Source: Anaerohalosphaeraceae bacterium
GTDB lineage: Bacteria > Planctomycetota > Phycisphaerae > Sedimentisphaerales > Anaerohalosphaeraceae
Length of the DNA: 34,065 nucleotides
Direction: 5' to 3'
Assembly (NCBI GenBank): GCA_041690555.1
Contig: JAWLHD010000002.1
Location: forward strand, 1-34,065
Part shown: positions 7,685 through 23,409 of the stretch, one piece after another
How the letters are laid out: every line of letters starts with the position of its first letter
Position numbering within the stretch: position 1 is the first letter of the stretch
Program-made: the position numbers and the translations under genes
Notes under the pieces: model-generated
What the model saw: the letters and a program-made list of their open reading frames with translations, nothing else
The model's database searches: none
Told to the model about the DNA's origin: nothing

Positions 7685-8238
7685 TTCTTCAGTTTCCTCG
7701 CACGTTTGAACATGCGATTGATCTCGAGCGGTTTGCGGATCGTCGGCAGCAGCTTGATCTTGCCTTTCCTGATCATTCTGGCGGCAAGGCCGGCGTCCTT
7801 GAAAGGCCGACCGGTCAGGAGATTCGTAAGGCCTGCAAGCCCCATCTCGTACATCCTGCCCAGACGCAGCATCGCCATCCAGAGGCGGTTTACAAGCGTT
7901 ACAGAGCCCGCATCCGTCTTGACCTTTTTTTCTTGGACAATAATCCGCAGGGCGTCCACAACCTGTGGAATGTCGATATCCTGCGGACATCTGGCAGAGC
8001 AGGTGTGACAGGACAGGCAGTACCAGATAGCATTGCCCTTCATGGCCTCGTCGGCCATTCCCAACTGGATATGCCGCATAAGCTCGGTGGGGGTACTGTC
8101 CATGAAGGAACGGTTCGGGCAGCCGGCCGCACACTTGCGGCATTGATAGCACAAAGACACATTCTGCCCGCAGCGGCGGCGAATCTCCTCGGCGAGCTTC
8201 GGATCGAGCGGTATGTTGCTTTCGCCGATTATCTTCAT
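7681..8238 (-). CDS. hdrC: Heterodisulfide reductase subunit C-like, 2x[4Fe-4S] ferredoxin
   Basis: CYQCRKCAAGCP and CLSCHTCSARCP motifs. ATGA overlap with the mvhD stop. Confidence 0.85.
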   Translation of the reverse strand: MKIIGESNIPLDPKLAEEIRRRCGQNVSLCYQCRKCAAGCPNRSFMDSTPTELMRHIQLGMADEAMKGNAIWYCLSCHTCSARCPQDIDIPQVVDALRIIVQEKKVKTDAGSVTLVNRLWMAMLRLGRMYEMGLAGLTNLLTGRPFKDAGLAARMIRKGKIKLLPTIRKPLEINRMFKRARKLKK

Positions 8239-8666
8239 TTGCCGGCATCTCCCTTTTGCCGCCCCACCGGGTTGGGACCAAAATGTTTAATTCGCGATGT
8301 CATCTCTTCGCAAATCTCGGCGAATCGGCCGCCCATCGCAGACGACAGATTGAACATCTCCACCCTTTCCGGCTCGACGCCGATTTCAATAAGCAGGCGC
8401 TTCACATAATCCACCCGTTTTCTCGCCCGCAGGTTGCCTTGGATGAAATGGCACTCGCCCTCCATGCATCCTGCCACAAATACCCCATCGGCGCCGTCCT
8501 CGAATGCCCTGAGCAGATGGAGTGCGTCAACCTTGCCGGTACAGGGCAGGCGGACGATTCGGACGTTCGGCGGATACTGCAGTCGCATTGCGCCGGCAAG
8601 GTCCGCCGCGGCAAACGCACAGTAGTTACAGCAGAACGCAACAATCTTCGGTTCGAAATCAGTCAT
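8235..8666 (-). CDS. mvhD: MvhD-like (methyl-viologen-reducing hydrogenase delta subunit family) electron-transfer protein
   Basis: KIVAFCCNYCAFAAADLAG ... LPCTGKVD ... GCMEGECHF is the typical MvhD/FlpD pattern. The start overlaps the hdrA stop by 8 nt. Confidence 0.85.
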   Translation of the reverse strand: MTDFEPKIVAFCCNYCAFAAADLAGAMRLQYPPNVRIVRLPCTGKVDALHLLRAFEDGADGVFVAGCMEGECHFIQGNLRARKRVDYVKRLLIEIGVEPERVEMFNLSSAMGGRFAEICEEMTSRIKHFGPNPVGRQKGDAGK

Positions 8667-11600
8667 TTATTATTAGTTTGCTACTCCGGTCAAACAGCGC
8701 CTCAGTCTTGGCGATAACCTGGGCGTCCTTGTAATGCATCAGACAGATGGCCTTTGCAGGGCATTCGGATGCACATATGCCGCACCCATGACACATTGCG
8801 GCCTCAATAACAGCTGCACCGTCAGCGTTTATCCGCGGCACATCATACGGGCATGTTCGCACGCATGTAAGGCAGGCGGCGCACAGGTCCGGGTTGACCA
8901 CGCTGACTATGCCGCTGACTTCCATAATCTTACGCGACAGAATTGAGACGGCCCTTGTGGCGGCGGCCTGAGCCTGGGTGATTGTCTCGTCGATGAACTT
9001 CGGCGCGTGGCAGGTTCCACAGAGAAACAGGCCGTCGGAGGCGAAGTCAACCGGCCGCAGTTTCATGTGAGCTTCAAGAAAGAAGCCCTCCAGCGTGACC
9101 GGCACCTTAAACGCCGTACCCACTGTCTCATTATCAGGCTGCGGCACCATTGCGGCGCTGAGTATCAGGGCATCAGGATCAAAACCGATCGTGATACCCG
9201 AATTGAGATCGCGGACCTTAACGCTGAGCCGGCCGGCCGTGTCGGCACTCACAGATGGTTTGCCGTCCACATCATATCTGAAGAACAACACGCCTGCACG
9301 TCTCGCCTCGTTGTAGCAGTCCTCTCGGAAGCCATAAGTTCGAATGTCCCGGTAGAGCACGGCAACCGTCGCATCGGGATTGGCGCGTTTGATTGCCGTG
9401 GCGTTCCGGACGGCAACGGTGCAGCATACGCGGCTGCAGATCATGCGGTCCGGTTCGCGCGAGCCCACACACTGAATCATCACGACCTCGCGCAGCCTCT
9501 TGGCGAAATCCGGATCGCTATGCAGGCGGTCTTCGAGTTCGAGCTGCGTCATGACGCGGTCATTATCGCCGTAAAGATACTCGATCGGCTTGGATTCACC
9601 GGCGCCGGTGGCGATAATCGCCGCACCGTGTTCGATCTCCAGCGTCTGCGGATCTGCGCCATCAATCTGCACCACAGACTTGAAGTCGCCGATGAATCCC
9701 TTGCACTCCTTGAGTGTCGCACGCAAATGAACGTCGATATTCTCGTGCTGGCGGACCTGCCGTACAAAATTTGCGAGCATTTCCTGTGGATCAGCTTCAT
9801 CCAGCATCTTGTGAATTTTGCGGGCATTTCCTCCAAGCTGGTCCGTCTTCTCGATCAGGTGAACCCCGTAACCCTGATTGGCTATCGACAGGGCCGCGGC
9901 CATGCCGCCGACACCACCGCCCACAACCACGGCGGTTCTATTGGGGACGTACTTCTTTGTTTCAAGGGGCTCGACAGTGGCCGCGCGTCCGACGGCCATT
10001 TTGACAAGATCGAAAGCCTTCTGTTCAGTAAGATCACCCAGACGCGTGTGCACCCAGGTGCACTGATCGCGGATGTTGGCCATTTCGAAGAGATAGGGAT
10101 TGAGCCCGACTTCGCGGACAGTGTCCTGGAAGAGCGGCTCGTGCGTCCGAGGCGTGCAAGAGGCCACGACAACCCGGTTGATATCGTGTTTCTCTATGTT
10201 GTCCTTTATTGCCTGCAAGCCATCCGGGGAACAGGTATACAGCAGGTCCGCAGCAAAAACAACGTTTGGAAGATCTGCCGCCTGCCCGGCGAGCTTCACG
10301 CAGTCAATAACACTGCCGATATTTGAGCCGCAATGACAGATGAAGACGCCGATGCGGGGGTCCATACCTAACACGTTACGCTGGTCCGGGTAGTGCTTGT
10401 CGGCAACCTGAGTGCCGCGGGCCTCGGCCAGGAGTTCCATTGCCGCAGCCGCTGCGGCGCTGGCCTGCGTAACACTTTCGGGTATGTCCTTGGGGCTTTC
10501 AAATGCACCCGCCAGATAAACACCGTCGCGCGACGATCTCGCCGGCTCGTAGTCACGGGAGCGCGCGAACTTGTAGGCATTCAGGTCTATGCCGCATGTT
10601 TGGGCAAGGCGGCCTGTACCATCCGAAGGGCAAAGGCCGGAGGACAGGATGACCATGTCGAATTGCTCTTCGAGCCATGTCTTTCCGTCCTCGCTGTATT
10701 CGATGCTAAGATTATGGTTCTTGAAATCCTGTCGGACCGCCGACGGTCGTGTGTGAATATACGTGACGCCGTATTTGGCCCTGGCTCGCTCGTAGTATTC
10801 GTCGAATCCCTTGCCAAAAGCCCGGACATCCATCACGAAGATCTTAATGTTAACGTCCCGCGAATGCTCGGCGATGACAATGGCCTGCTTCGTTGCATAC
10901 ATGCAGCAGACGCTTGAACACCAGGGGTTCTCGGTGTCGCGAGAGCCGACGCACTGAATGAAGGCGATCCTGCGAGGCTCGACGCCGTCGGAGGGTCTTC
11001 GGAGATGTCCCAGCGTAGGGCCGGATGCACTCAGCAGGCGTTCGCAGTCAAGGGCGCTAATGACGTTGGGGAAACGACGGTAACCATACTCGCCTTTCTT
11101 CGCCGCGTCATAAAGATCGAAGCCCGGCGCCAGGATCAGCGCTCCCACATCAAGCGTTAGTTCTTTGGGCTTGTCGTCGTAGACAATGGCGTCGGCTTCG
11201 CAGAGCTTTTCGCACAGACCGCAGGACGAGCAGATCGCGCAATACAGACAGCGATCCGCTTCAGCGACTGCCATCTCTTCGGCGAAGCCCAGGTCCACTT
11301 CTTCAAATCTGCGGCGTCGATCAAGCGAGATTGTCGGCATTTGCACGCGCCGCAAGATTTTCTCTTTTCGCTGTTTGAGTTCGTCTTTCGATATCTCGAC
11401 AACCGGCTGTTTGTCTTCGGACGGCAATTCGACGCCGCGCAGCCATGCATCTATTGCTTTGGCTGCGAATTGCCCGTCGGCAGCCGCCTGAACGACGCTG
11501 GCCGCGCCCCGGACTACGTCTCCGCCGACAAAAACACCCTGCCAGGAGGTCATCCCTGTGTTAGGATTAACGTCGACGGTGCCGCGCGGGGTGAGTTCGA

Positions 11601-13125
11601 TCCTGCCGCCCTCGGCAAAGAGCCCGAGTTCCGGCCTCTGACCTATTGAAACAATCAATTCATCGGCGGTGATGATCTGTTCGGTGCCATGGATTGTTTC
11701 CAATTCAAGACGACCGTCCACAAAGGCCATTCGTCGGACATCCAGTATTTCCAGCCCGGTGAAGGTCCCTGCTTCTCCCGTAATGCGTTTCGTTGCCTTG
11801 GAAGCCAGCACCTCGACACCCTCTTCCTGTGCCCACTGGATCTCCCACGGATATGCAGGCATCTTGTCGTGGGACTCGAGACAGACCACGCGCACCCGCT
11901 TGGCGCCGAGGCGGAGCGAAGTACGCGCACAATCCATAGCAACATTGCCGCCCCCGATGACGATTACGCTTTCCTTAACCGAGGTCTTCGTGCCAAGTCG
12001 CACCTCCCGAAGAAAATCGATTCCGTGCGAAACCTCTTTCAAGTCCTCGCCGGGCAGGCCGAGGCGAGCGCTCTTGTGCGAACCGACCGAAAGGAACACA
12101 GCATCGAAGCCCTCGTCAATGATGGCCTGAATATCTTCCTGGTGTCGAACGTGGCTGTGGAGCTTCACATCGACACCATAATCAAGGATGCTTTGAATGT
12201 CCCGGTCGATAACCTCGGTTGGTAAACGGTATTCCGGAATGCCTATCCGCATCATACCGCCCAGGACGCCATGCTTTTCGAAGACAGTTACGGCATAGCC
12301 CGCCTTGCGCAGGTCCAGTGCCGCCGCCAGACCTGCCGGCCCGGAGCCGATGACTGCGACCTTGCGACCGTTCTCCACGATAGATGACTGCTTCTGCTCA
12401 GGAGTCGGCTTCTCGCCGTGCTTTTCGTACCAGTCCGCCAGGAAGCGCTTCACATAAGCGATCGCGATCGGATCGTCGAGATTCCCCCGATTGCAGGCCT
12501 GCTCACACGGGTGTTCGCATATCCGGCCGCAGATGCCCGGAAAGGGATTATTCGCGACAGCGGATTCATAGGCCTCCTGAAAACGCCCGGCGGCGGTTAG
12601 AGCGACGTATCCGCTCGGATTGCCATGAATGGGACAGGCGTCGTAGCAGGGCGCCCACCCTTGGCGAGTCATCGCGAATTTGTTGGGCACAGCTTGCGGA
12701 TATTTCTTAAAAATCGCTCGCCGATCCCCCAAAAGTTGGTTGTACTCATCCTTGACCGGCACTGGGCAGTTTTCAGCACAAACACCGCACCCGGTGCACT
12801 TTTCCAAGTCGACGAAATTCGGCCGCTGCGTTACCGTCGCACGAAAGCTTCCGGCCTGTCCGGTAAGCTGCGAAACCTCCGCATTGGTGATGATTTCGAT
12901 GTTTCGGTGAGTGCCGGCGGCAACAAGCCGCGGACTAATTGTACACATGGCACAATCGTTGGTGGGAAATGTCTTGTCCAACTGCGCCATGCGCCCGCCG
13001 ATTGCCGTGCTGGATTCGACAAGGTAAACCTTGAAACCTGAATCCGCCAGATCGAGGGATGCATGGATGCCTGCAATGCCCCCGCCGACCACCAGGACCG
13101 AACCGATTTTAGTGTTTTCGACCAT
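8659..13125 (-). CDS. hdrA: Giant (1488 aa) HdrA-like flavoprotein: two HdrA modules with an inserted GltD/NfnB-like NAD(P)H oxidoreductase module (HdrL-like architecture)
   Basis: Domain layout by residue:
- aa 1-155: HdrA FAD fold (VVGGGIAGI; CTGCGVCAENCP).
- aa ~158-565: glutamate-synthase-small-subunit-like (CGRICEHPCEQAC; VAVIGSGPAGLAAA; VIVIGGGNVAMDCA; VFVGGDVVRGAASVVQAAADG).
- aa ~625-905: remainder of HdrA module 1 (CLYCAICSSCGLCEKLC; CVGSRD..CSSVCC).
- aa ~920-1488: a complete second HdrA (CHCGSNIG; ASCTPRTHEPLFQ; VVVGGGVGGMAAA; CVGSRE..CSRVCC; C-terminal CAACLTCVRTCP and CHGCGICASECP).
There are no in-frame stops. Confidence 0.9.
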   Translation of the reverse strand: MVENTKIGSVLVVGGGIAGIHASLDLADSGFKVYLVESSTAIGGRMAQLDKTFPTNDCAMCTISPRLVAAGTHRNIEIITNAEVSQLTGQAGSFRATVTQRPNFVDLEKCTGCGVCAENCPVPVKDEYNQLLGDRRAIFKKYPQAVPNKFAMTRQGWAPCYDACPIHGNPSGYVALTAAGRFQEAYESAVANNPFPGICGRICEHPCEQACNRGNLDDPIAIAYVKRFLADWYEKHGEKPTPEQKQSSIVENGRKVAVIGSGPAGLAAALDLRKAGYAVTVFEKHGVLGGMMRIGIPEYRLPTEVIDRDIQSILDYGVDVKLHSHVRHQEDIQAIIDEGFDAVFLSVGSHKSARLGLPGEDLKEVSHGIDFLREVRLGTKTSVKESVIVIGGGNVAMDCARTSLRLGAKRVRVVCLESHDKMPAYPWEIQWAQEEGVEVLASKATKRITGEAGTFTGLEILDVRRMAFVDGRLELETIHGTEQIITADELIVSIGQRPELGLFAEGGRIELTPRGTVDVNPNTGMTSWQGVFVGGDVVRGAASVVQAAADGQFAAKAIDAWLRGVELPSEDKQPVVEISKDELKQRKEKILRRVQMPTISLDRRRRFEEVDLGFAEEMAVAEADRCLYCAICSSCGLCEKLCEADAIVYDDKPKELTLDVGALILAPGFDLYDAAKKGEYGYRRFPNVISALDCERLLSASGPTLGHLRRPSDGVEPRRIAFIQCVGSRDTENPWCSSVCCMYATKQAIVIAEHSRDVNIKIFVMDVRAFGKGFDEYYERARAKYGVTYIHTRPSAVRQDFKNHNLSIEYSEDGKTWLEEQFDMVILSSGLCPSDGTGRLAQTCGIDLNAYKFARSRDYEPARSSRDGVYLAGAFESPKDIPESVTQASAAAAAAMELLAEARGTQVADKHYPDQRNVLGMDPRIGVFICHCGSNIGSVIDCVKLAGQAADLPNVVFAADLLYTCSPDGLQAIKDNIEKHDINRVVVASCTPRTHEPLFQDTVREVGLNPYLFEMANIRDQCTWVHTRLGDLTEQKAFDLVKMAVGRAATVEPLETKKYVPNRTAVVVGGGVGGMAAALSIANQGYGVHLIEKTDQLGGNARKIHKMLDEADPQEMLANFVRQVRQHENIDVHLRATLKECKGFIGDFKSVVQIDGADPQTLEIEHGAAIIATGAGESKPIEYLYGDNDRVMTQLELEDRLHSDPDFAKRLREVVMIQCVGSREPDRMICSRVCCTVAVRNATAIKRANPDATVAVLYRDIRTYGFREDCYNEARRAGVLFFRYDVDGKPSVSADTAGRLSVKVRDLNSGITIGFDPDALILSAAMVPQPDNETVGTAFKVPVTLEGFFLEAHMKLRPVDFASDGLFLCGTCHAPKFIDETITQAQAAATRAVSILSRKIMEVSGIVSVVNPDLCAACLTCVRTCPYDVPRINADGAAVIEAAMCHGCGICASECPAKAICLMHYKDAQVIAKTEALFDRSSKLIIND

Positions 13126-13165
13126 TATATAAGATCAATTCTCGTTCCGTCCTCGATTTGTTCGA

Positions 13166-14929
13166 TTAGAACAGGCCATGAACTTTGCCTGTGTCAACGT
13201 CAACGTCGATCCGCCGGAAGGCCGGATCGGAAGCTGTGCCGGGCATCAGCTTGATATCGCCGGCGACAGGAACAACGAAACCCGCCCCTCGGTAGATCAT
13301 AATGTCACGGATAGGCAATTGCCAGCCCGCAGGTCGATTTTTCAGGTCCGGATCGTGTGAGAGGCTCAAGTGTGTCTTGACCATGCAAGTCCCCAACTCC
13401 TTTGCCGCCGGATCCGCCTCGATCACCTTGGCCTTGGCAAGCGCCTCCTCCGTGTATGTAACGCCGTCGGCGCCGTACACCTCCTTGGCTATGAGTTCGA
13501 TACGTTTACGCAGGGGCGTGTCAAGCTCGTACAGGAAGCGGAAGTTATTCTTCTCCTCGCATGCCGCCACCACTGCCTCTGCCAGCTCGACCGCCCCTTC
13601 GCCGCCCTTGAGCCAGTGCTTCGACAAGGCGGCCAGCGCACCGTTCTGTTCGGCAATCCTGCGAACAAGTTCTATTTCCGCCTTTGTATCCGTGTAGAAG
13701 CTGTTGACGCAGACAATGGGGCGCACGCCGGACTTTTTCACTGTCTCAATGTGCGCAATCAGATTTTCGCAGCCTGTCTCAAGAAGGCCGAGATCTTCTT
13801 TTGCATATTCCTTGCTTAGCGGCATACCGGGCTTTACCGCCGGTCCCCCGCCGTGCATCTTCAGGGCCCGAATGGTAGCGACGATCACAACAGCATGCGG
13901 TACGAGGCCCGACATGCGGCACTTGAGATTCCAAAACTTCTCGAAGCCTACGTCTGCGCCGAATCCGCTCTCGGTAACAAGGTAGTCACTCAAGCGTGTG
14001 CCCACCAGGTCGGCGATTATGGAACTCTGTCCGATCGCGATGTTGGCGAAGGGACCCGCGTGAACGAGAATCGGCTGGCCCTCGATAGTCTGCATTAAAT
14101 TGGGATTCAGGGCGTTGAGCATCCAGGCAGTCATGGCCCCATCCACCTCAAGGTCGGCGGTGGTAATCTCATTGCCTTTCTTGTCGTGAGCAACCACGAT
14201 TCTGGCCATTCGCTGCCGGAAGTCCTTCAGGTCTTTGGCAACTGCGAGTATGGCCATCACTTCGCTCGAGACGGTGATCTGAAAACCCGATTCCATCTCA
14301 TAACCGTCCATCCTGCCGCCCTTGCCGATGGTGATATTGCGCAGCGCCTGCGCGCAGAAATCCATAGCCCATCGCATTTGAACGCGATCAGGGTCGATAT
14401 TGAGGCGTGTGAGGCTGCTTCTTGCCAGCCGTGCGTCGTCATAGTTGCGTTCGTGCTGCATCCGAGCGGTAAGCGCCACCATTGCAAGATTGTGGGCGTT
14501 GGCAATGCAGTCAATGTCCCCGGAAAGGCCAAACGACAGTGGCGTAAGCGGAATGCACTGAGCCAGACCACCACCAGCCGCTGAACCCTTGATATTGAAC
14601 GTGGGACCGCTGCTCGGCTGGCGGATGGCGCCTACTACGCGTTTGCCTATCTTACCCAGACCCTGCACCAGCCCGATAGCCGTCGTGGTCTTGCCTTCTC
14701 CGAGAGGCGTGGGCGTAATGGCGGTGACGTCTACGTACTTGCCCTGCGCATTATCCTTGACGCGCTCCAGAATCCTGAGGTAATCGAGTTTGGCCAGTTT
14801 TGTGCCGACGGGCAGCATTTCGCTGTTCGCCAAACCGAGTTCACACGCCAAGTGGTCAAGTGACTTCATATTCTCTTCGGCGGCCTCGGCAATCTGCCAG
14901 TCCGCCATCACGGTCGGATCCAGTTTCAT
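13166..14929 (-). CDS. fhs: Formate--tetrahydrofolate ligase
   Basis: The P-loop [12 protein letters not shown] and the motifs [24 protein letters not shown] and [14 protein letters not shown] are the characteristic full-length FTHFS pattern. Confidence 0.95.
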
Positions 14930-15388
14930 GAATTACTTCCTCATAGTTACGGTTGCACCGAGGCTGCATTATCCGTTTCGATAGGCTTTCAAGCAGTTGT
15001 CTGAATAGAACTTGTTCAGGAGCATCTCTGCAGTTACACGTCAACAAGTTTACCACTGGGCACGTCTACAATGGCGAGTCAGCCGTCCGATATCGCCATT
15101 GCAGCCATGTGCGATTGATGAGGCTCTGTTCGGCCTCCGTCTGTGACAGACTCGAAAGGCTCACGTGACAGGGCGATGACATGCCGCCGTTGCCCATAGA
15201 TTGCGCCATTTCGACGTATTTGTCCAGAACTTCTTCACCACTCTTTTCATCAGTTGGCTCTGGTCGAGGAGAATGCCCGTGCCAGATGTGGTCCAGCGGC
15301 CCGTACCCGGACCAACGGTTCTTCTGTCTATTGCGGAATCCGCCACAAACAAGATTGCCCATAATGAGCCGACAGATTGCACGAGCGG

Positions 15389-17065
15389 TTAGTAACCCTG
15401 CCGCCGGTACGTCCTGGGCGAATGTTTCACACCGTGGCACTCCAGATAACACTGTCCGCGAAAGCTGCCCATGTCCTCGAACTCCAAACGCCCCGTATCC
15501 GGGTCCGCAAGAACGACCCCGGCGTCGAAGTTCATCAGGTTGCTGTTGTTCACCGGGTTGCCCTGCGTCAGACTGATTCCGTGCGGATCGTGGCACACCG
15601 AACACGGTGCCTTCTGGTCCTCGATATGTCTCTTATGCTCGCTGAAACTGTCGTTGTTCAGGATGCTTTCGCGATCGTGGCACCGATAGCACAACTCGTA
15701 TGCATAGGGGCTCTCCTGCGTATAGTCGTCAGTCTCGTACTGATACGCCAGCAAAAATGGAAAACGTGATCCGTGAGGCCCGTTCGCCGCCGATGATGAG
15801 TCCGAACCGTGGCAGTCCGTGCAGTAGATCATCGTACTCTCGTCCATCCCCGCAACAAGGCTCGGAACGTTCGGGTTGGCCCCACGCGCGACAACCGGAT
15901 GATACGAAGGATTGCCCCTCTCGAATTCCAGTAGCGTGCTGGTCTGCGTGATCTGCCGTGAAGTCGTCCCAATTACCTGTACCGGATTGTTGCCATGACA
16001 CTTGAAGCAGACCTCGTATTCGTAAATTGCCCTGTCGATGATGCTTCCCTCGCTGGTTACGCCGCTGACACCTCGCATTGCCTCGCGTATTAACGGCGCC
16101 TGCACCTGCCCAACAGTCGCCTTCACAATGTGCGGGTTGTGGCAATCAACGCATTCGACGTGTTCCTCCGTGGTCCCGGGCGCCTCCATAATGTCGTGAA
16201 CGCCCTGGTAGTTCTTGACGAAGTGCCCGCTGGTCCGGTCGAATTCATTTTCCATGTTTTTCTGTGCCACCAGCCCGTTATGACAGCTAAGGCAATTCTT
16301 CTCCTCTTCGGCGAAGTGAAGCAGCCGCTGCGCCCCTCCCGCCGAGTGTGGCCGATGGCACGACAGACACCCGTTGTCGGCGACCGTAAGATACCCAGTC
16401 TGAGTCAGGTACGGATTCTGTGCCTGCCCCACCGCAGCCGTCGACGTTGCGTGTACACTGCCCGCCCATCCGTCCAGGTTATGGCAAGTAATGCAAAGCC
16501 GCGAGCCCGCGTTCGGCGCCACCAGAAAATGTCCGAACGTATCATTGTGAGGATCATGACACGTAACGCACTGCATCTCCCCAAACTCGTCCAGCCGAAA
16601 TTCATTCGGCAATGAATCCGGGTGGCGAATCTGCGGGTCTTTTGCCGCCAACTCCGCCGAATAAACAAAGCTCACCGGGTGATCGTCCGAAAGGTCCGTA
16701 CCCAGGTTCGCGCGACCCGGCGGCATGAACGCAGACCCAGGCCTGCCGTTTACCGTCGCGTCCAGCGCCACCGTACCGTCATGACAGCTCAGGCACAGCT
16801 TGCTCGATCCTGTCGGCTGCCCCACCTCCGCGTCAAGCGAGGTGCTCCAGTATATCTGGTATGTCCGCTCAGAAAGCTTGTGATTCCAGAGCGGCGTCCC
16901 TGGAATAGCCTTGTGCGGCGTATGGCAGAATTGACATGCCATGCTCCCGTCGCCACCCGGCGAGAAATCGTGCGCCGTCCCGGACACTCCGGAGCCGTTG
17001 GCCATCGCCCCGCACAAGCAGTACGCCGCAAGCATGATAACCGCCGCAATCGTCTTCGCTGTCAT
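15389..17065 (-). CDS. Exported dodecahaem c-type cytochrome (11 CXXCH + 1 CX3CH)
   Basis: Signal peptide MTAKTIAAVIMLAAYCLCGAMA. Haem motifs in order: CQFCH, CLSCH, CVTCH, CITCH, CLSCH, CLSCH, CVDCH, CFKCH, CTDCH, CYRCH, CSVCH, CYLECH. Many have a distal-His context (CxxCHxPH). The start overlaps the upstream NHL gene stop (ATGA, 17062-17065). Confidence 0.9.
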   Translation of the reverse strand: MTAKTIAAVIMLAAYCLCGAMANGSGVSGTAHDFSPGGDGSMACQFCHTPHKAIPGTPLWNHKLSERTYQIYWSTSLDAEVGQPTGSSKLCLSCHDGTVALDATVNGRPGSAFMPPGRANLGTDLSDDHPVSFVYSAELAAKDPQIRHPDSLPNEFRLDEFGEMQCVTCHDPHNDTFGHFLVAPNAGSRLCITCHNLDGWAGSVHATSTAAVGQAQNPYLTQTGYLTVADNGCLSCHRPHSAGGAQRLLHFAEEEKNCLSCHNGLVAQKNMENEFDRTSGHFVKNYQGVHDIMEAPGTTEEHVECVDCHNPHIVKATVGQVQAPLIREAMRGVSGVTSEGSIIDRAIYEYEVCFKCHGNNPVQVIGTTSRQITQTSTLLEFERGNPSYHPVVARGANPNVPSLVAGMDESTMIYCTDCHGSDSSSAANGPHGSRFPFLLAYQYETDDYTQESPYAYELCYRCHDRESILNNDSFSEHKRHIEDQKAPCSVCHDPHGISLTQGNPVNNSNLMNFDAGVVLADPDTGRLEFEDMGSFRGQCYLECHGVKHSPRTYRRQGY

Positions 17066-18120
17066 TGTCCCTGGACCTCCATGAATTGGAAGATCTGTAC
17101 CCTCTTGTTGAATGAGTCCGCCGCAAAGATCCGGTTGCGTCCGTCTATGAACAGCCCCATCGGCAGCCAGAACTCACCCGGCCCATGTCCCTCGCCGCCC
17201 AGCGCCATCAGTATCTGCCCTTCGCTGTTGAATATCTGAACGTTCTCGAACTGCTTGTCAGTCACATAAATGTTGCCGAAACTGTCCACGGCGATGCCGC
17301 ACGGGTGCGCAAAATGCCCCGGCCGATTGCCATGCTCCCCTATGCTTCGCACGAACCTGCCGTCGGCCTCGAAAACCTGGACACAGTAATTCAGCGTATC
17401 GCTGACATAGACGCGGCCCTGTCCGTCCACACACACGAACGTCGGAAACCGCAGACCTTTCGGGCTCTTGTCACCGATGCTGCCCGCGTGCCCACCCCGC
17501 AGATCGAACATCTCGACCACGTTTTTCTTCGTATCCACAACGTATAATCTCTGCTCTTTCCTGCAGTACGCCACCCCCGACGGCCGCTGCAGAATCTCCT
17601 CACCGAATGCGAAGCGGTACTTGCCGGCCTTGTCAAACACAAACACCCTCCCCAGCACGCTGTCCGACACATACACGCTCGCACCGGCGGCGGCAACCCC
17701 TACCGGCGACTGCAGCGGCTGGTTGCCCGCCCGCGAGAACTGCACGTATTCCCGTGTCCTCAAATCCATGACGTGAACCACCGCCGCCGAACCATCTGTA
17801 ACGAAGAGCCTTTCGTTTTCGTCGAGCGCAACGGCTCTCGGACCCCTGAGCACCCCCACCTCCTTGCGCCCGAAGATCAGTCGCCCCAGCGCCTCCACCC
17901 CGCTGACCTCTCGCTTGAGGTCCTCCTCACCCGTCATCTGCCCCACGTACCTGATCCTCGCCTGCTCCGGCGGCTCAGGCCACACTATAGGCTTGCCCCC
18001 GTCCGTAAACAGTTCCTGCCGCCCGCGCTCGCATCCGCCCCACAAACTCAGTACGAGAACGGCTGCCAGCCAACTCGCCGCCGTAACGTACCTGCGCAAT
18101 TTGTTAACCTTCATTCGCAT
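17062..18120 (-). CDS. Exported NHL-repeat six-bladed beta-propeller protein (lipoprotein-like signal)
   Basis: N-terminus MRMKVNKLRRYVTAASWLAAVLVLSLWGGC. NHL-type repeats are visible, for example G.GPGEF..P.G..ID...RIF.ADS.N.RVQIF and GIAVDSFGNIYVTDKQFENVQIF. Confidence 0.85.
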   Translation of the reverse strand: MRMKVNKLRRYVTAASWLAAVLVLSLWGGCERGRQELFTDGGKPIVWPEPPEQARIRYVGQMTGEEDLKREVSGVEALGRLIFGRKEVGVLRGPRAVALDENERLFVTDGSAAVVHVMDLRTREYVQFSRAGNQPLQSPVGVAAAGASVYVSDSVLGRVFVFDKAGKYRFAFGEEILQRPSGVAYCRKEQRLYVVDTKKNVVEMFDLRGGHAGSIGDKSPKGLRFPTFVCVDGQGRVYVSDTLNYCVQVFEADGRFVRSIGEHGNRPGHFAHPCGIAVDSFGNIYVTDKQFENVQIFNSEGQILMALGGEGHGPGEFWLPMGLFIDGRNRIFAADSFNKRVQIFQFMEVQGQ

Positions 18121-18132
18121 ATATCCATCCCG

Positions 18133-20160
18133 CTAAAACCGCCTGACCAGCTTAACAAAAAACATCGAGTTGGTTGTCTCCGTGTTTCTCCTGTCCAGCA
18201 CATAATACCCCCACCCTCCGCGAATGCTAAGGTCCCGCTGATGATACTCCAGACCCGCGTCGAAACGCAACCCGTCCGTGCGTCCTATGTCGCTCGAATT
18301 CTCTCGCCGAAGCTCCGCATCTGCCGTAAGCGTCAAATGCCGCGTCAGCCGGTTCTTGACGCCTGCCCTCGCGGTGAAGAGGCTCGTCTGGCGATCGCGA
18401 TCTCCAGTCGAATCGATCCACGCCTGGGCCAACTGCCCGTGAATCGACGTCGTCGGCGACAGCGACCAGTGCCCGCTCGCCGTGATCCGGTCGCTTTCCG
18501 AACTGTTATGTGTCGATTCGATCTCCCGGTGCTCCGCCGTCAGCGTTATGTTCCGCAATCTGTAAGCCGCACCGAAGGTATCGGAACGGTAGTCCTCATC
18601 CGGATTGAACGCCGCCTCTCGCGAAAAGTCTATCTCCGTCTGGCGATTCTGGTGAGCGTAGTAAACCGAGAATCCGTTGTTGAACTGCTGCTCGACCCTG
18701 AAGTAATGCTCCAGCAAATCCTCCGTTACGGAACTCTCAACCGCATACAGATAATCTACGTACAACTCCTGCCCATCGCTTATATTTGGCAGGTCCACCC
18801 CCAATGTCGTTATCTCGAGCTCTACGCGATCGCCTACCCGCCGAACAGTGTAATCATCCCCTTCGGTGTATATCTCCGTGCCGTCCGCATTCTTCACCAC
18901 GATCGTGTCGATCAGCACGTCTCGCTTCTCCAGCACAATCGGAAACGGATCCGTGAACGTATGCGATTCGTCGATCACAATATCAGTCCCCGTATCCCCC
19001 GTGCTTTCCCTATTCGCCATCCTGAAAGAGTACTCCGCCGTCAGCAGCCCCCACGGATTGTGCCGGTAATAGTTGAAGCGCAGGTCCCCGCCCCGGCTAA
19101 TCGATTCGCTGCTCCTGCCGAACTCCGTCTTGTTCGCAAACAGGCTCAGCCGCGTCGTAAAGTTGTCGTACAACCTATGCGTAAAGCCGCCCACGCCACC
19201 GATCGTCCGGCTCTTGATCGACTCGAACGTGCTCTCCGAATAATGCGCGCTGTAAAACGTGCTGAAGCGGTCCGTATGCCGCAGCAGCAGACTCTCCTGC
19301 CACTCCAGCGTCCGCGTATCGATATCGCTCTGCCTGTCCACCAGCGATACATGCGACGTCAGACTGTGCCGGTCGCCCGGACCGAAGTTGTAATCATGGT
19401 TCAGCCTGTAGCTTTTGCTGTCGATCTTGCGGGTATGGCCCGCCCCCGTCTGAACGACGTCGTCCATGTCGAAGCGAAAGTCAAGGTGAGATCTATCGCT
19501 GAAGTCGTGCGATACCGAGTATGCAAACCGCTTCGAACGCCTGCCGAACAAAAAACCACTGTCGTCCAGGTCCGCCGTCTGCCTAATCTCGTTGTCCGTC
19601 CATGATAAGGTCATCGGCCAGTCCGAGTTCTGCCAACGCGCAAGAACGCCGCGCGACGTGTTCTCAATGTGCAGCGGGCTGCGGAATCGACGCGGCAGAT
19701 ATGACTCTTCCTTGCTCAGGCTCACGCTGAAAGGATACGGCTTGCCCGACAGGAAATTTGTTATCAGCCTATAGCTGTTCATGTTGCCTGACGAGCTGTC
19801 GCTGTCCCTGTCCGTAGAGTAGCGCTGCTGCACCAGACCCATGCCGACCCCCGCCGCGTAAGTCATAAGCTTCGGGTCGAACACGTCGCCTTCCGTATGT
19901 ACGTACAATTCTTCCTGCGTGATTGAGCTCTTGTTCTCACGAGTTCCTGTCGGCGACTTCAGCTCCTCGCTGTGCTGCCGCGTCGAAAGCCGCAGCTCGC
20001 CGTGAATGCCGCGTCCTTGCACCAGCGGACGTTCCCGCCCGCGCACCCGAACTGCGCACCCTCCATGCAGCAGTATCACCGCGCACGCCGCCGCGACGAG
20101 CAATATCTTGAGTAAATTCAATCCATTGACACATTTCTCTGGTGTGTCTTGATTATACAA
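18133..20160 (-). CDS. Outer-membrane beta-barrel-type protein (675 aa) with a central ~90-aa soluble-looking insertion
   Basis: There is no in-frame ATG at the 5' end. Candidate starts are TTG at 20160 or TTG at 20121, which would give (M)NLLKILLVAAACAVILLHGGC. Long runs of alternating polar/hydrophobic residues rich in Y/F/R/D/S/T are present. The C-terminal ...FFVKLVRRF ends in the aromatic residue typical of BAM-dependent barrels. Confidence 0.7.
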   Translation of the reverse strand: MYNQDTPEKCVNGLNLLKILLVAAACAVILLHGGCAVRVRGRERPLVQGRGIHGELRLSTRQHSEELKSPTGTRENKSSITQEELYVHTEGDVFDPKLMTYAAGVGMGLVQQRYSTDRDSDSSSGNMNSYRLITNFLSGKPYPFSVSLSKEESYLPRRFRSPLHIENTSRGVLARWQNSDWPMTLSWTDNEIRQTADLDDSGFLFGRRSKRFAYSVSHDFSDRSHLDFRFDMDDVVQTGAGHTRKIDSKSYRLNHDYNFGPGDRHSLTSHVSLVDRQSDIDTRTLEWQESLLLRHTDRFSTFYSAHYSESTFESIKSRTIGGVGGFTHRLYDNFTTRLSLFANKTEFGRSSESISRGGDLRFNYYRHNPWGLLTAEYSFRMANRESTGDTGTDIVIDESHTFTDPFPIVLEKRDVLIDTIVVKNADGTEIYTEGDDYTVRRVGDRVELEITTLGVDLPNISDGQELYVDYLYAVESSVTEDLLEHYFRVEQQFNNGFSVYYAHQNRQTEIDFSREAAFNPDEDYRSDTFGAAYRLRNITLTAEHREIESTHNSSESDRITASGHWSLSPTTSIHGQLAQAWIDSTGDRDRQTSLFTARAGVKNRLTRHLTLTADAELRRENSSDIGRTDGLRFDAGLEYHQRDLSIRGGWGYYVLDRRNTETTNSMFFVKLVRRF

Positions 20161-20174
20161 TAGGTTCAGTCGGC

Positions 20175-20849
20175 TTAATCAAAGGTGTTCGGATCCGGAC
20201 TCACGGCGTACTTCAGGAGCTTCTCCCTTTCGCCGGCATGAGGATCATGACAGTCCGTACAAATAGTATCCTCCATCCTGGTATGTCCCGGTATCGTCGC
20301 CATATCCTCCGCCACGTGACACCGGTAGCAGAGGTCCGGTTGTGGCGCCGCCTGCAGGTGCACGTAGCCGCTCTGGTGCGGATTGTGACATATAACGCAC
20401 TCACCTACGGCAACCGGGCCGTGCAGACGCGCCCCGGGAGTTGCGAAGTTCGCGTGGCACATGTAGCATAACTCTGGGACTGCCGCGATCAGTTCGCGCT
20501 GGTACTGTTGAAAGCTCGATGCGTGGCACTTAATGCAATCCCGCGCTGGTGCGTGTCTGCTGCCCCGCCGCTGCGCCGCCGCAGGCGTATCGGGGCGTCC
20601 CGTTGCCCCCCCCGCCGGCAATTCGCCGGTGTTCACGACGACCACCGACCGGTGAACGCCTCCCTCGATCGGCGGAACGCCCTCGAAGAAGAACGTCAGA
20701 ACGCGCCGGCGCTCCACGTCGCTGCATCCGATCCCCAGCGCAATAGCCAACATCCCCGACACAACCGCCAGTCTGACCATGATACCTGCCGCCCCGTCGA
20801 TCACATGCGCTCGGCGGCTGCTGCCAGCAACTCTCTCGTTCTTCTCCAT
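20175..20849 (-). CDS. N-terminally anchored pentahaem c-type cytochrome
   Basis: Five CXXCH motifs: CIKCH, CYMCH, CVICH, CYRCH, CTDCH. A hydrophobic anchor/signal reads MVRLAVVSGMLAIALGIGC. I chose the start at ATG 20849 (MEKNERV..., GAGG 3 nt upstream) because the track start at 20957 overlaps the upstream gene by 86 nt. ATG 20780 (MVRLAV...) is an equally possible start. Confidence 0.8.
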   Translation of the reverse strand: MEKNERVAGSSRRAHVIDGAAGIMVRLAVVSGMLAIALGIGCSDVERRRVLTFFFEGVPPIEGGVHRSVVVVNTGELPAGGATGRPDTPAAAQRRGSRHAPARDCIKCHASSFQQYQRELIAAVPELCYMCHANFATPGARLHGPVAVGECVICHNPHQSGYVHLQAAPQPDLCYRCHVAEDMATIPGHTRMEDTICTDCHDPHAGEREKLLKYAVSPDPNTFD

Positions 20850-20871
20850 CAGCCTCGCCCAAAATGGCCTG

Positions 20872-22032
20872 TCAGCCGTTAGCCGCGTCTGGTCCTGCCG
20901 AATCGCCTTCGGCGCCTCCGGACGGCAGAAAAACCTCCGGGAATGTACCAAAGCCATAGACGCTCACCTTCCGGCTGCCGAACTGGTTTGTAACCAGTAC
21001 AATGAAATCAAGCTTGGCACCCTTGACTGCGTACTTCTCGAACACAGCCACGTTGTCATAATCGATTACCACGTCCGCCGGCAGATACATCTGCCCCGGC
21101 TCGGTGCCCAACGTTCCGAAGTACATCAGCAGACGACCGTCCGCCCGAAATACCTTCACCGCACACGCCGGTCCCGCGTCAGCCACCCACACCCTGCCCT
21201 CTCTATCCACGGCGATCCCCTTTGATCGCACAAGGCTCGCCGGACTGCTTCCGCCGGGCTGCCCGTAAGAGAAGACATGTCTGCCGTCGCGGTTGAAACG
21301 TGTGACGCTGCCCTTGAGCTTGTCCCCCACGTAAACGTCTCCACCCTCGTCCACCGCCAAATCCGTAATCATGGCAAGGTCATCCTCTCCCGGCCTCTGC
21401 CCATCTGCAACTCCCCTGCCGATTCGCCTCAAAAGCTGCCCGCTCCGCTTGTCCAGAACCAGGACCTGGTTGCTGTTACCGTCGGTTATATACAACTCGC
21501 CCTGGCGCACCGCCACGTCGATAGGCCGCATTTCCAGGTCCCGTCCAAGGTACGCCGCCAGCTTGTCCTCGGCGCTCCACACCGACACGACTCCTGTCAG
21601 CGCGTCCGCCACGTATTTCGTGCCGTCCCGCTCGATAAAGATGCTCACCGGCCGCTGCAAAGACCTCCCGGAGCCAAACACCGAGAAGCGGTTGTTGACA
21701 ATGTCCATGACCTTGATATTACCCTGCCCCACATCGCAAACGTATATTTTGCCGCCGTGGATCGCCACCCCGTAAGGCTTGGCCAGCGTGTCCGCCGGTG
21801 CGTCTGATTCGCCCAAGACGAACGTCTCGAGAAAACTGGCCTTCTCAATATGGAAATTCTCCGCCCCCGAAAAGGACGTAAGAAACTGAAGTCGCGGCGT
21901 CGCAGGTGGCGGCGGATAAAAAACGGGTTCAAAATCAAGCTCCTTTGCCGCCGATTTCTGGCACCCGCCATTTACAAACAAACTCGCCGCCGCAAATACA
22001 GCCAAAACTAACATAACTTGTTTGTTGTGCAT
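20872..22032 (-). CDS. Exported NHL-repeat beta-propeller protein (lipoprotein-like signal), paralogue of 17062-18120
   Basis: Start chosen at ATG 22032 (MHNKQVMLVLAVFAAASLFVNGGC) with AGGAG 7 nt upstream. NHL-type repeats include GVAIHGGKIYVCDVGQGNIKV, GELYITDGNSNQVLVLD and GIAVDREGRVWVADAGPACAVKVF. Confidence 0.85.
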   Translation of the reverse strand: MHNKQVMLVLAVFAAASLFVNGGCQKSAAKELDFEPVFYPPPPATPRLQFLTSFSGAENFHIEKASFLETFVLGESDAPADTLAKPYGVAIHGGKIYVCDVGQGNIKVMDIVNNRFSVFGSGRSLQRPVSIFIERDGTKYVADALTGVVSVWSAEDKLAAYLGRDLEMRPIDVAVRQGELYITDGNSNQVLVLDKRSGQLLRRIGRGVADGQRPGEDDLAMITDLAVDEGGDVYVGDKLKGSVTRFNRDGRHVFSYGQPGGSSPASLVRSKGIAVDREGRVWVADAGPACAVKVFRADGRLLMYFGTLGTEPGQMYLPADVVIDYDNVAVFEKYAVKGAKLDFIVLVTNQFGSRKVSVYGFGTFPEVFLPSGGAEGDSAGPDAANG

Positions 22033-22187
22033 ATTGACACTCCTGATGATTCGGGACCTTCGCCCACTCGGTGCCGGCAATTAAAACGACAATATTCACT
22101 GTTGCTGCGGCAACTCTTTTCTTGCACTAAGTCATCAGCTAACAAACACTTAATGAATCTTGAAAACCGCTGCGGATCTAAAGACAC

Positions 22188-22216
22188 AGTATAACCGTGG
22201 GAATACAAGTATTCAA
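22188..22216 (-). promoter_or_regulatory. Putative sigma70-like promoter of the NHL/cytochrome/barrel operon
   Basis: Read on the minus strand: TTGAAT (22216-22211), a 17-nt spacer, then TATACT (22193-22188). It lies about 150 nt upstream of ATG 22032 and immediately downstream of the terminator at 22275-22309. Confidence 0.45.
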
Positions 22217-22274
22217 TCCGGTTAAGTCAAAAAGTCTGACACGAACGCCGCTTCTTCGACATTCCCCCTGAATG

Positions 22275-22309
22275 AAAACCCGGCCTGGGTGTCTTCTCCT
22301 CAGGCCGGG
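22275..22309 (-). terminator. Rho-independent terminator after the tetrahaem cytochrome gene
   Basis: The minus strand reads CCCGGCCTG-aggagaagacac-CAGGCCGGG followed by TTTT. That is a 9-bp GC-rich stem, a 12-13 nt loop and a U-tract, about 40 nt downstream of the stop at 22350. Confidence 0.6.
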
Positions 22310-22349
22310 TAGGGTAGTACACAGAACAGAAATCCAGACAATTCGCCTG

Positions 22350-23096
22350 TCATTTGATATGGCAAGTCTTGCAAAGAGCGCCGTAGTTCAGTTCGTAGCT
22401 CTGCTCAAGGTAGTTTAGGCCCGCTCTGCGAGCGCTGTATGTTAGCCCCCACTGGATGCCCGGAATGTTCACCAAATGCGGAATACTCAGCGTGAACTCA
22501 CCCGAACCGGGTGCCGTAACCTGATTGCCCTGGTCATCCAGTATCGGGTTGCCTTCTCCGTCGTACTGCGGAACCGCATCGTTTTCCCACTGCAAATTCT
22601 GTCCGTGCAGCCCCTGAAGGTGAATATCGTGGCAGCTCTGGCAGTTGACGTAACCCTTCGTCGCACTCGTAAGGTCCTCGGCGATGGTTCCCCGCCCGTT
22701 GACCACGTTGCTGGGGCTCGTCTCGGGGTACAGTTCGGGATCCTGCGACGCCGCCAATGCATACGAAAACTCAATCGGGTGAGAACCGCTCAGGTCCCCG
22801 CCCACCGTATTGATCAGGTGGCTGCTGCCGTCCGTCGCGTCATGACACGAAAGACAAAGCAGCGTCGGACCCTCCGGATCGCCGGGCGTGGCGTCCATCG
22901 TCGCGCTCGAGTAGTTCGTCCAGCTCACCTGGCTGGTCATCCTCCCGCTCCACAAAGGCATGTCTGTCAATTGCTGAGCCTTGTGCGGGATGTGACACGA
23001 ATCGCAGTCATAAGTCGAACTGGTCTCTATGCTGTGGAACGCAATAGCCGGTGCCGCCACCGCAAGTACCGCTAACATCAAGAACGCCTTTTTCAT
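22350..23096 (-). CDS. Exported tetrahaem c-type cytochrome
   Basis: Start chosen at ATG 23096 (MKKAFLMLAVLAVAAPAIA) with GGAGG 8 nt upstream. Haem motifs are CDSCH, CLSCH, CQSCH and CKTCH, the last being 2 residues from the C-terminus. The protein shares a module with the N-terminus of the dodecahaem protein. Confidence 0.85.
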   Translation of the reverse strand: MKKAFLMLAVLAVAAPAIAFHSIETSSTYDCDSCHIPHKAQQLTDMPLWSGRMTSQVSWTNYSSATMDATPGDPEGPTLLCLSCHDATDGSSHLINTVGGDLSGSHPIEFSYALAASQDPELYPETSPSNVVNGRGTIAEDLTSATKGYVNCQSCHDIHLQGLHGQNLQWENDAVPQYDGEGNPILDDQGNQVTAPGSGEFTLSIPHLVNIPGIQWGLTYSARRAGLNYLEQSYELNYGALCKTCHIK

Positions 23097-23409
23097 CTGT
23101 GCTGCCTCCAAACACTGCTGTTGATCTTTCGCGGGCTTAGATAGCCGTAATCTAAGGGACTCCCGCCCGTCACTGTACATGCAATCAATATGCCTTCACG
23201 CCGCACCCTGCTTGTCCCGCCGGGAACAAATCTCTAAGACTTTGCAAGAAAAGCACTTATAGGAACATAAAAATTTGCCGATGCCGCCTGCCGCCGCCCC
23301 TTTTCTCAATTTCGGGAAGAAGACCGACTGCTGTTATCAGTATTGAGAATGCAGTTATTTCGGGGCTGTACCGACCATCCAAGACACCTTGTGAAGCTGC
23401 TCAAAACAA

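Follow-up and report, generated by a model that had tools for sequence, protein, structure and literature searches.

What would an anaerobic planctomycete do with a tightly packed operon that encodes two propeller proteins, two multihaem cytochromes and a large barrel, all of them with export signals? The operon lies in a 34,065-nucleotide (nt) stretch of DNA, here called the window (GCA_041690555.1, contig JAWLHD010000002.1, positions 1-34,065), from an Anaerohalosphaeraceae bacterium (Planctomycetota; Phycisphaerae; Sedimentisphaerales). An earlier, sequence-only reading recognised five minus-strand genes there, proposed a candidate outer-membrane electron conduit or a redox enzyme with NHL propellers as integral partners, and knew of no characterised system with this five-part make-up. 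The core of the conduit proposal, an exported outer-membrane module of haem proteins and a large barrel with obligate NHL partners, stands; the set, however, was one gene short, a gene for an OmcE-like tetrahaem cytochrome having been missed. This gene (22350-23096) sits directly upstream of the five-gene operon on the same strand, and the whole locus (15389-23195, minus strand) is in our view a probable gene cluster for OmcE-type extracellular cytochrome nanowires. Its six parts, all on the minus strand, are the OmcE-like tetrahaem cytochrome, a first NHL propeller protein (NHL1), a pentahaem lipoprotein, the barrel, a second NHL propeller protein (NHL2) and a dodecahaem cytochrome. A 2025 preprint describes a "smallest omcE cluster" of Desulfuromonadia that consists of an OmcE-like subunit, two beta-propeller lipoproteins, two multihaem cytochromes and a large beta-barrel, a parts list identical to that of the window's six genes, and because of this match the composition is a known one, not an uncharacterised one.

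The OmcE-like subunit

By homology, the upstream tetrahaem gene is shown to belong to the OmcE family. When the 248-amino-acid (aa) protein is compared as a single sequence with the PDB (phmmer), it matches only 7tfs_A (2e-10) and 9yuq_N (1.7e-5), and a family profile built from eight orthologues matches 9YUQ (3.1e-27), 7TFS (2e-25), OmcS weakly (8e-6) and nothing else, its alignment to OmcE spanning profile positions 1-177 of 223 and chain residues 1-209 of 218. 9YUQ is the OmcE nanowire bundle of Desulfuromonas soudanensis WTL, and 7TFS, a 232-aa "cytochrome c," is what we take to be the OmcE filament of Geobacter sulfurreducens, an assumption that fits the use made of this structure in the preprint. 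Seven histidines are invariant in the tetrahaem family, namely those of the four CXXCH motifs together with H38, H106 and H159; an N-terminal histidine is present in all sequences as well, its alignment varying. The C-terminus (...LCxTCHxK) is as in 9YUQ, with the chain stopping right after the fourth haem motif.

An insertion of variable length (~45-110 aa) lies between haem motifs 3 and 4 in the window (residues ~160-235) and in four related loci (L001, L005, L007 and L008). It is absent from OmcE/9YUQ and from loci L003, L004 and L010.

Conservation of the gene set

The search for related loci included a genome scan with a 14-sequence barrel alignment. The gene order recurs in planctomycete loci L001, L003, L004, L005, L008, L013 (from a complete 3.6-Mb Phycisphaerales genome) and L014, and L007, also from Planctomycetota, keeps it as far as its contig reaches; the dodecahaem cytochrome of these relatives always has 11 CXXCH motifs and one CX3CH motif. 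The same order is found in a deltaproteobacterial metagenome-assembled genome (MAG; L009) and, without the pentahaem gene, in a gammaproteobacterial MAG (L010), whose barrels are 18-24% and whose dodecahaem cytochromes are 44-48% identical to those of the window. Gene order is conserved in every relative with sufficient flank, and the six-part set is shown to keep it across three phyla, with the OmcE-like gene holding the same position in every locus that has upstream flank.

Closer to the window, a 140-kb Phycisphaerae MAG contig (JACZKQ010000019) is collinear with it at 73-77% nucleotide identity. Barrel homologues whose source is named come almost all from MAGs of Planctomycetota, Phycisphaerae or Sedimentisphaerales, and a word-indexed search with a barrel profile that includes the two proteobacterial homologues matched, owing to its word prefilter, only planctomycete-type proteins. 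Phycisphaerae appear to be a large reservoir of the cluster.

In L014, a PDDEXK_3 gene and a ParE-toxin/antitoxin pair (5364-6331) are inserted between the NHL1 and pentahaem genes, the other genes being intact.

Gene calls and exported proteins

The five accessory genes occupy minus-strand open reading frames (ORFs) at 20872-22080, 20175-20957, 18133-20160, 17062-18120 and 15389-17065. With likely ATG starts at 22032 (NHL1) and 20849 (pentahaem cytochrome), the intergenic gaps are 22, 14 and 12 nt, followed by a 4-nt ATGA overlap that couples NHL2 to the dodecahaem gene. The public gene call for NHL1 is also 386 aa long, and the TTG start of the 675-aa gene at 20160 is backed by an N-terminal "KCVNGL" segment conserved in relatives. 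In these particulars the sequence-only reading was accurate: its coordinates, gaps and ATGA coupling are confirmed, its haem-motif counts (5 CXXCH; 11 CXXCH plus 1 CX3CH), its NHL1 signal ending VNGGC and its 675-aa protein ending ...VRRF are exact, and Pfam recovers both the NHL and the Paired_CXXCH_1 domains that it had named for a check (Table 1).

Judged from their N-termini, NHL1, NHL2, the pentahaem cytochrome and the barrel look like lipoproteins, because a cysteine directly follows the hydrophobic region (h-region) of the signal. The sequence-only reading had described the pentahaem cytochrome alone among these four as anchored. The post-signal cysteine of both NHL proteins and of the pentahaem cytochrome is kept in all loci examined.

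Table 1. Features of the predicted nanowire cluster and of the block downstream of it (positions in the window)
Feature	Position	Strand	Details
Candidate sigma54-type -24/-12 element	23180..23195	-	AGGCAT-N5-TTGCA
OmcE-like tetrahaem c-type cytochrome, 248 aa	22350..23096	-	4 CXXCH; Sec signal ...AIA|FH; OmcE profile match
Intrinsic-terminator-like hairpin	22274..22310	-	stem CCCGGCCUG...CAGGCCGGG + UUUU; centroid stem
Sigma70-like promoter candidate	22188..22216	-	TTGAAT-17-TATACT, 9/12 match
NHL beta-propeller lipoprotein 1 (predicted), 386 aa	20872..22032	-	Pfam NHL 7e-16; signal ...FVNGG|C
Pentahaem lipoprotein cytochrome (predicted), 224 aa	20175..20849	-	5 CXXCH; Paired_CXXCH_1 2e-26; ...ALGIG|C
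Outer-membrane beta-barrel (predicted), 675 aa	18133..20160	-	AlphaFold2 (AF2) model; lipobox ...LLHGG|C; C-terminal ...VRRF
NHL beta-propeller lipoprotein 2 (predicted), 352 aa	17062..18120	-	Pfam NHL 3.6e-24; ...SLWGG|C; motif IVWPEPPEQARIRY
Dodecahaem cytochrome, 558 aa	15389..17065	-	11 CXXCH + 1 CX3CH (CYLECH); Paired_CXXCH_1 1e-25; Sec signal, no lipobox
Formate-tetrahydrofolate (THF) ligase	13166-14929	-	
HdrA-like fusion protein, 1488 aa	8659-13125	-	
CCG-domain HdrB/C-like protein	6812-8281	-	
MetV/MetF	6147-6815, 5209-6150	-	

The barrel and the pentahaem cytochrome

The 675-aa protein matches no Pfam family at E ≤ 0.01 in the local Pfam copy, neither MtrB/PioB nor an unrelated outer-membrane protein family. 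Its AF2 model, calculated with 33 homologues, is all-beta with ~30 long antiparallel strands (predicted local distance difference test [pLDDT] 86.3; predicted template modeling [pTM] score 0.69). The 50 Foldseek matches to the PDB that were listed are all to barrels of the outer membrane, and to large ones (TonB-dependent receptors, ushers, LptD and MtrB); among them MtrB (6r2q_B) has the best template modeling (TM) score, 0.45. A small, conserved insert of ~65 aa between strands 18 and 19, at residues ~375-437 of the 648-aa form, is modelled less confidently, and several of the residues that the family conserves most strongly (E371, H373, L383, D409 and Y410) belong to it. Invariant positions include R646 and, in alignment A1, also F648 and several insert residues, which are nearly invariant in alignment A3; the C-terminal ...RRF is conserved in the family. 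An exhaustive HMMER search with A1 puts the barrel family at 2606 representatives of 50%-identity clusters (E ≤ 1e-3), of which 1157 reach E ≤ 1e-30; members are mostly full-length, at 640-700 aa.

The pentahaem cytochrome (224 aa from M37 of a 260-aa ORF) carries five CXXCH motifs and a conserved LTFFFEGVP motif and locally resembles MtrA (6r2q chain A, 3.4e-9). In three barrel homologues of 887-940 aa (P0213, P0281 and P0311), a lipobox, five CXXCH motifs, a long Pro/Ala-rich linker and the barrel form one polypeptide. Because such natural fusions constitute Rosetta-stone evidence, the sequence data argue that the pentahaem cytochrome is the barrel's fixed partner. The fusions attach the cytochrome to the N-terminal end of the barrel, an end that in most barrels faces the periplasm.

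Several minor observations concern the barrel family. Homologue P0218 (761 aa) has a non-haem N-terminal extension of ~130 aa before the barrel. An NCBIfam "phage tail tube" match on the insert (1.8e-4) was set aside as noise, at 21 bits versus a cut-off of 60. Four homologues (P0019, P0023, P0030 and P0037) carry the precomputed Pfam label PF27730.1, which the local Pfam copy does not contain, and Pfam may have lately gained an entry for the family. Another homologue, P0006 (53% identical), bears the NCBI label "Dehalococcoidales bacterium"; because Dehalococcoidales are generally regarded as lacking an outer membrane, this label is probably a MAG binning error, horizontal transfer being the alternative.

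The dodecahaem cytochrome

In the PDB, the dodecahaem cytochrome matches only OmcE (7tfs_A, 2.7e-21; 9yuq_N, 4.3e-17), in both cases over residues 9-196, and its N-terminus is 33% identical to the upstream OmcE-like protein (E = 6e-18). An OmcE-like tetrahaem module (~residues 12-196) forms its N-terminal part, and eight more haems come after it. Residues 349-495 show a match resembling domain II/IV of MtrC/MtrF (1.3e-12). All 12 haem motifs and 16 further histidines are invariant across 43 dodecahaem homologues. In a profile search that saturated at 8000 candidates, the family has >7600 matches at E ≤ 1e-20, and all among the 120 matches listed are planctomycete-type.

With the pentahaem cytochrome, the dodecahaem protein shares only short paired-CXXCH motif similarity. 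The earlier suggestion of a duplicated pair of NHL protein and cytochrome stands for the propellers, which are paralogues (29% identity, E = 1e-30), but not for the cytochromes.

An extra 386-aa cytochrome (6 CXXCH plus 1 CX4CH) lies between the dodecahaem gene and fhs in L005 (14701-15861), the closest relative. The window, non-coding at 14930-15388, lacks this gene.

The NHL propellers

Both NHL proteins have a Pro-rich motif just after the lipobox, which in NHL1 takes the conserved form PVFYPPPP..PRLQFL. Besides Pfam NHL, NHL2 matches DUF5128 (3.5e-21), and its PDB matches are NHL propellers of the TRIM71/Thin/Brat type. NHL partners are present in every related locus with enough flank, and this NHL subfamily is always found beside cytochromes. 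With gene order kept as well and no unrelated outer-membrane family matched by the barrel, none of the outcomes that the sequence-only reading had named as contrary to it was seen.

Transcription

The cluster appears to be divided between the OmcE-like gene and the rest. A sigma54-type element lies ~99 nt upstream of the OmcE-like ATG, and sites matching at least 9 of 11 specified positions are found 99-110 nt upstream of the orthologue in L004, L007 and L008. In L001 and L014 such sites lie at a greater distance from the gene, also on its upstream side. L004 and L013 have genes for sigma54 activators beside the cluster. Matches of this type occur in the window at chance level (14 found, 17.5 expected), and the sigma54 promoter of the OmcE-like gene is a lead, not proof. 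After the same gene, a GC-rich hairpin with a T-tract is present in 7 of 10 loci (the window, L001, L004, L005, L007, L008 and L014). Terminator hairpins lie ~25-90 nt past the stop codon in most loci, and their stem sequences differ from locus to locus; the loop of the window's hairpin exceeds 8 nt, which is outside the limit of a simple terminator scan.

For the accessory genes, the sequence-only reading had placed a sigma70-like promoter ahead of NHL1. The site exists, and four relatives (L005, L007, L010 and L014) have sites with at least 9 of 12 matching positions 169-222 nt upstream of NHL1, but its own 9/12 match is at chance level, sigma70-like sites in the region being no more frequent than in shuffled sequence (3 found, 3.9 expected). 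No good -24/-12 match was found between the terminator and NHL1 in any locus examined. We infer that the layout suits a gene for a structural subunit, expressed strongly, with an accessory operon behind it that is transcribed separately or by partial read-through.

Comparison with known systems

The locus can be compared with several described systems, as follows.

(i) The omcE cluster of Desulfuromonadia, the system with the same parts list, has as named members G. sulfurreducens OmcE (GSU0618) with cytochromes GSU0615 and GSU0616, as well as the OmcE of D. soudanensis WTL. Cytochrome c biogenesis genes (resB/ccsA or ccm) adjoin the cluster in Desulfuromonadia and in the window's relatives alike. 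According to the preprint, OmcE homologues with neighbours of this kind occur in Thermodesulfobacteriota, Pseudomonadota, Aquificota, Campylobacterota and Nitrospirota, and the host of the window, a member of the Planctomycetota, falls outside these five phyla. The window also differs in lacking the downstream glycosylation gene block, in place of which it has Wood-Ljungdahl methyl-branch genes, in the insertion of its subunit between haem motifs 3 and 4, and in the lipobox of its barrel, a feature of the planctomycete versions. The preprint reports no OmcE-like tip candidate in omcE operons and does not mention an OmcE-like module in the dodecahaem cytochrome. We found no report of an omcE cluster in Planctomycetota in a literature search of incomplete coverage, in which absence is not proof; one survey of the class Phycisphaerae searched only for mtrBC.

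(ii) The uetABCDEFGHIJ cluster of "Candidatus Tenderia electrophaga"/Tenderiales and some Gallionella, proposed to serve electron uptake from cathodes, is similar by parts list: it has a tetrahaem cytochrome (UetA), a barrel with 28 predicted strands (UetC), NHL proteins (UetH and UetI) and a protein with 11 CXXCH motifs (UetJ), followed by ccsAB. The gammaproteobacterial locus L010 has a matching order, and its barrel and 12-haem proteins are homologous to those of the window. Uet further includes a peptidyl-prolyl isomerase, a cupredoxin and three trihaem cytochromes of the c7 type, and it has no pentahaem lipoprotein.

(iii) MtrCAB of Shewanella and the Pcc/Ext conduits of Geobacter follow the same logic of an outer-membrane barrel with multihaem cytochromes on both sides. 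MtrB has 26 strands, in comparison with ~30 in the window's barrel, which has no MtrB/PioB Pfam match. The window's cytochromes match their models locally without being members: DmsE-family scores are 56 and 47 bits versus a cut-off of 192, and the OmcA/MtrC score is 18.5 bits versus a cut-off of 209. Against the decahaem model of GSU2203 (OmcK), the sole Geobacter model compared, they score 42 and 39 bits versus a cut-off of 325. In haem number, the window's lipoprotein (5) and its soluble cytochrome (12) resemble ExtF and ExtG. Mtr and Pcc systems have no counterpart of the two NHL lipoproteins or the OmcE-like subunit.

(iv) The osc (omcS companion) cluster of G. sulfurreducens likewise has accessory genes beside a nanowire subunit gene; as cited from Shen et al. 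2025, OscH is proposed to fold the filament and OscE/F/G to secrete it along a porin-like path. Its subunit, OmcS, is hexahaem and only a weak profile match to the window's family (8e-6).

(v) In Desulfovibrio ferrophilus IS5, multihaem cytochromes are co-expressed with NHL propellers (DFE_0448-0451 and DFE_0461-0465), which are proposed to stabilise an outer-membrane cytochrome complex. As described, these propellers are proposed to replace a barrel, and the description mentions neither a barrel nor an OmcE-like subunit.

The OetABI conduit of syntrophic sulfate reducers was considered as the closest match and dropped; its paper never mentions NHL or propeller proteins.

Proposed mechanism and alternatives

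In a nanowire cluster of this kind, the OmcE-like gene would be transcribed as its own, strongly expressed unit, between the sigma54-like promoter candidate and the conserved terminator hairpin, and its product would undergo Sec export, cytochrome c maturation, passage across the outer membrane and polymerisation into a haem-stacked filament. The barrel and the pentahaem lipoprotein, which some relatives make as one polypeptide, would form the trans-outer-membrane part, and a segment of the cytochrome resembles MtrA. The dodecahaem cytochrome may link periplasmic electron carriers to the filament, with its OmcE-like module as a built-in pseudo-subunit that could nucleate or anchor the wire, and the NHL lipoproteins are putative scaffolds or chaperones. 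The quinone pool would supply or receive the electrons via an inner-membrane quinol dehydrogenase not encoded in the window; the flow could run in either direction, toward reduction of metals or a partner or toward electron uptake.

Several points weigh against this reading. The polymerisation of the planctomycete subunit would follow from homology only, no planctomycete filament having been observed, and the insertion of ~70 aa between haem motifs 3 and 4 in the window's protein could alter or prevent filament packing or change the filament surface. The link of the accessory proteins to the Geobacter/Desulfuromonas cluster rests on the parts list and on the intermediates L009 and L010. The AF2 model of the dodecahaem cytochrome, from a 43-sequence alignment, is poor (pLDDT 35, pTM 0.24), and the 34-kb window holds no inner-membrane quinol dehydrogenase partner. 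In addition, it is disputed in the literature whether Geobacter requires OmcE to reduce Fe(III) oxide or to produce current.

A bolder version of the nanowire reading, which we put forward as possible though not probable, makes the dodecahaem cytochrome the missing base of the wire: its OmcE-like module would dock as the cell-proximal pseudo-subunit, while its other eight haems and the barrel-tethered pentahaem cytochrome would run through the ~30-strand barrel, held by the NHL lipoproteins, and the Phycisphaerae/Sedimentisphaerales would be a large unrecognised reservoir of wires. If so, one machine would both anchor and charge the wire, and many wires would be held by bacteria usually seen as fermentative polysaccharide degraders, here beside Wood-Ljungdahl genes.

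A plain MtrCAB/Pcc-type porin-cytochrome conduit that makes no filament, in essence what the sequence-only reading had proposed, is, in our judgement, unlikely. In such a conduit, the barrel would sheathe the pentahaem and/or dodecahaem cytochrome, the tetrahaem protein would be a monomeric carrier in the periplasm or at the surface, and the NHL proteins would stabilise the complex. The barrel's best listed TM-score is that of MtrB, the pentahaem cytochrome has its local MtrA match and its barrel fusions in three relatives, the dodecahaem cytochrome has its MtrC/MtrF-like segment, and published interpretations of the analogous Uet and D. ferrophilus clusters are of this type. The tetrahaem protein, however, is specifically of the OmcE family, with PDB matches to nanowire proteins only; its gene is invariably linked to the module and has the transcription layout of a major structural subunit, and the barrel lacks an MtrB/PioB match. 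The two readings also overlap, in that the conduit could be the base of the wire.

We regard it as quite improbable that the accessory genes encode a secretion or assembly machine only, with the barrel as an usher-like pore for folded OmcE-like subunits, the NHL proteins as periplasmic chaperones and the cytochromes as ordinary periplasmic donors outside the barrel, in parallel with the proposal that OscEFG secrete OmcS. Foldseek does match the barrel to the ushers FimD and PapC (E ~1e-7), and its strongly conserved insert between strands 18 and 19 is reminiscent of an usher plug domain. The preprint and, as far as its cited content goes, Shen et al. 2025 favour a role of this kind in porin-like secretion or anchoring. 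The usher TM-scores (0.24-0.30) are nevertheless below that of MtrB, the pentahaem-barrel fusions argue for the cytochrome as a permanent partner of the barrel, and the pore would have to be wide enough for a folded haem protein of ~25 kDa.

A periplasmic or outer-membrane redox enzyme, the other option of the sequence-only reading, gains no support and is very improbable in a form in which the NHL propellers would be catalytic and the cytochromes would feed them electrons: propellers and multihaem proteins are combined in enzymes such as hydrazine synthase, but the matches of the NHL proteins to the ScyF and pyrroloquinoline quinone (PQQ)-associated propeller families are weak and far below threshold (98 and 148 bits versus a cut-off of 350), no cofactor motif or haem site was found in either protein, the closest relatives in the PDB are NHL domains that bind protein or RNA and are not enzymes, such as those of TRIM71, Thin and Brat, and the 30-strand barrel and the OmcE-like subunit would be left without a role.

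Significance

The omcE cluster type has already been described, and what may be new here is the dodecahaem module, the pentahaem-barrel fusions and the Phycisphaerae reservoir; the first two appear not to have been described before. How cytochrome nanowires are exported, anchored and electrically connected is an open question according to the preprint, and the dodecahaem module and the fusions bear on the anchoring and secretion of nanowires. Under the nanowire reading, a compact six-gene version in a distant phylum helps to define the conserved core of the system, the fusions indicate which cytochrome is the barrel's fixed partner, and the OmcE-like module offers a testable candidate for the filament base. 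Many anaerobic sediment Phycisphaerae may carry out extracellular electron transfer, and a survey for mtrBC alone would miss the cluster.

Neighbouring genes

Genes of the Wood-Ljungdahl methyl branch form a block directly downstream of the cluster (window 5209-14929, minus strand; Table 1), and this adjacency is kept in the Phycisphaerae MAG locus L005. It may hint at an acetogen-like metabolism tied to extracellular electron exchange. The cytochrome c biogenesis genes that adjoin the cluster in relatives are of the Ccm (cytochrome c maturation) or ResB/CcsA type.

A conserved set of genes also adjoins the cluster in three relatives (L001, 1449-6524; L003, 455-5552; L004, 10053-12874). It comprises a NapC/NirT-type cytochrome (~460-490 aa) and a ~460-aa multihaem cytochrome and, in L001 and L003 only, an unknown ~390-aa protein and a tetratricopeptide repeat (TPR) protein. 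This set, absent from the window, is a candidate inner-membrane quinol dehydrogenase module.

Elsewhere in the window, a 568-aa ORF at 1295-3001 (plus strand) has no Pfam match at E ≤ 1e-4, and Rfam and tRNA scans of the window gave no matches. The cumulative GC skew has its minimum near 26 kb, where the genes switch from the minus to the plus strand.

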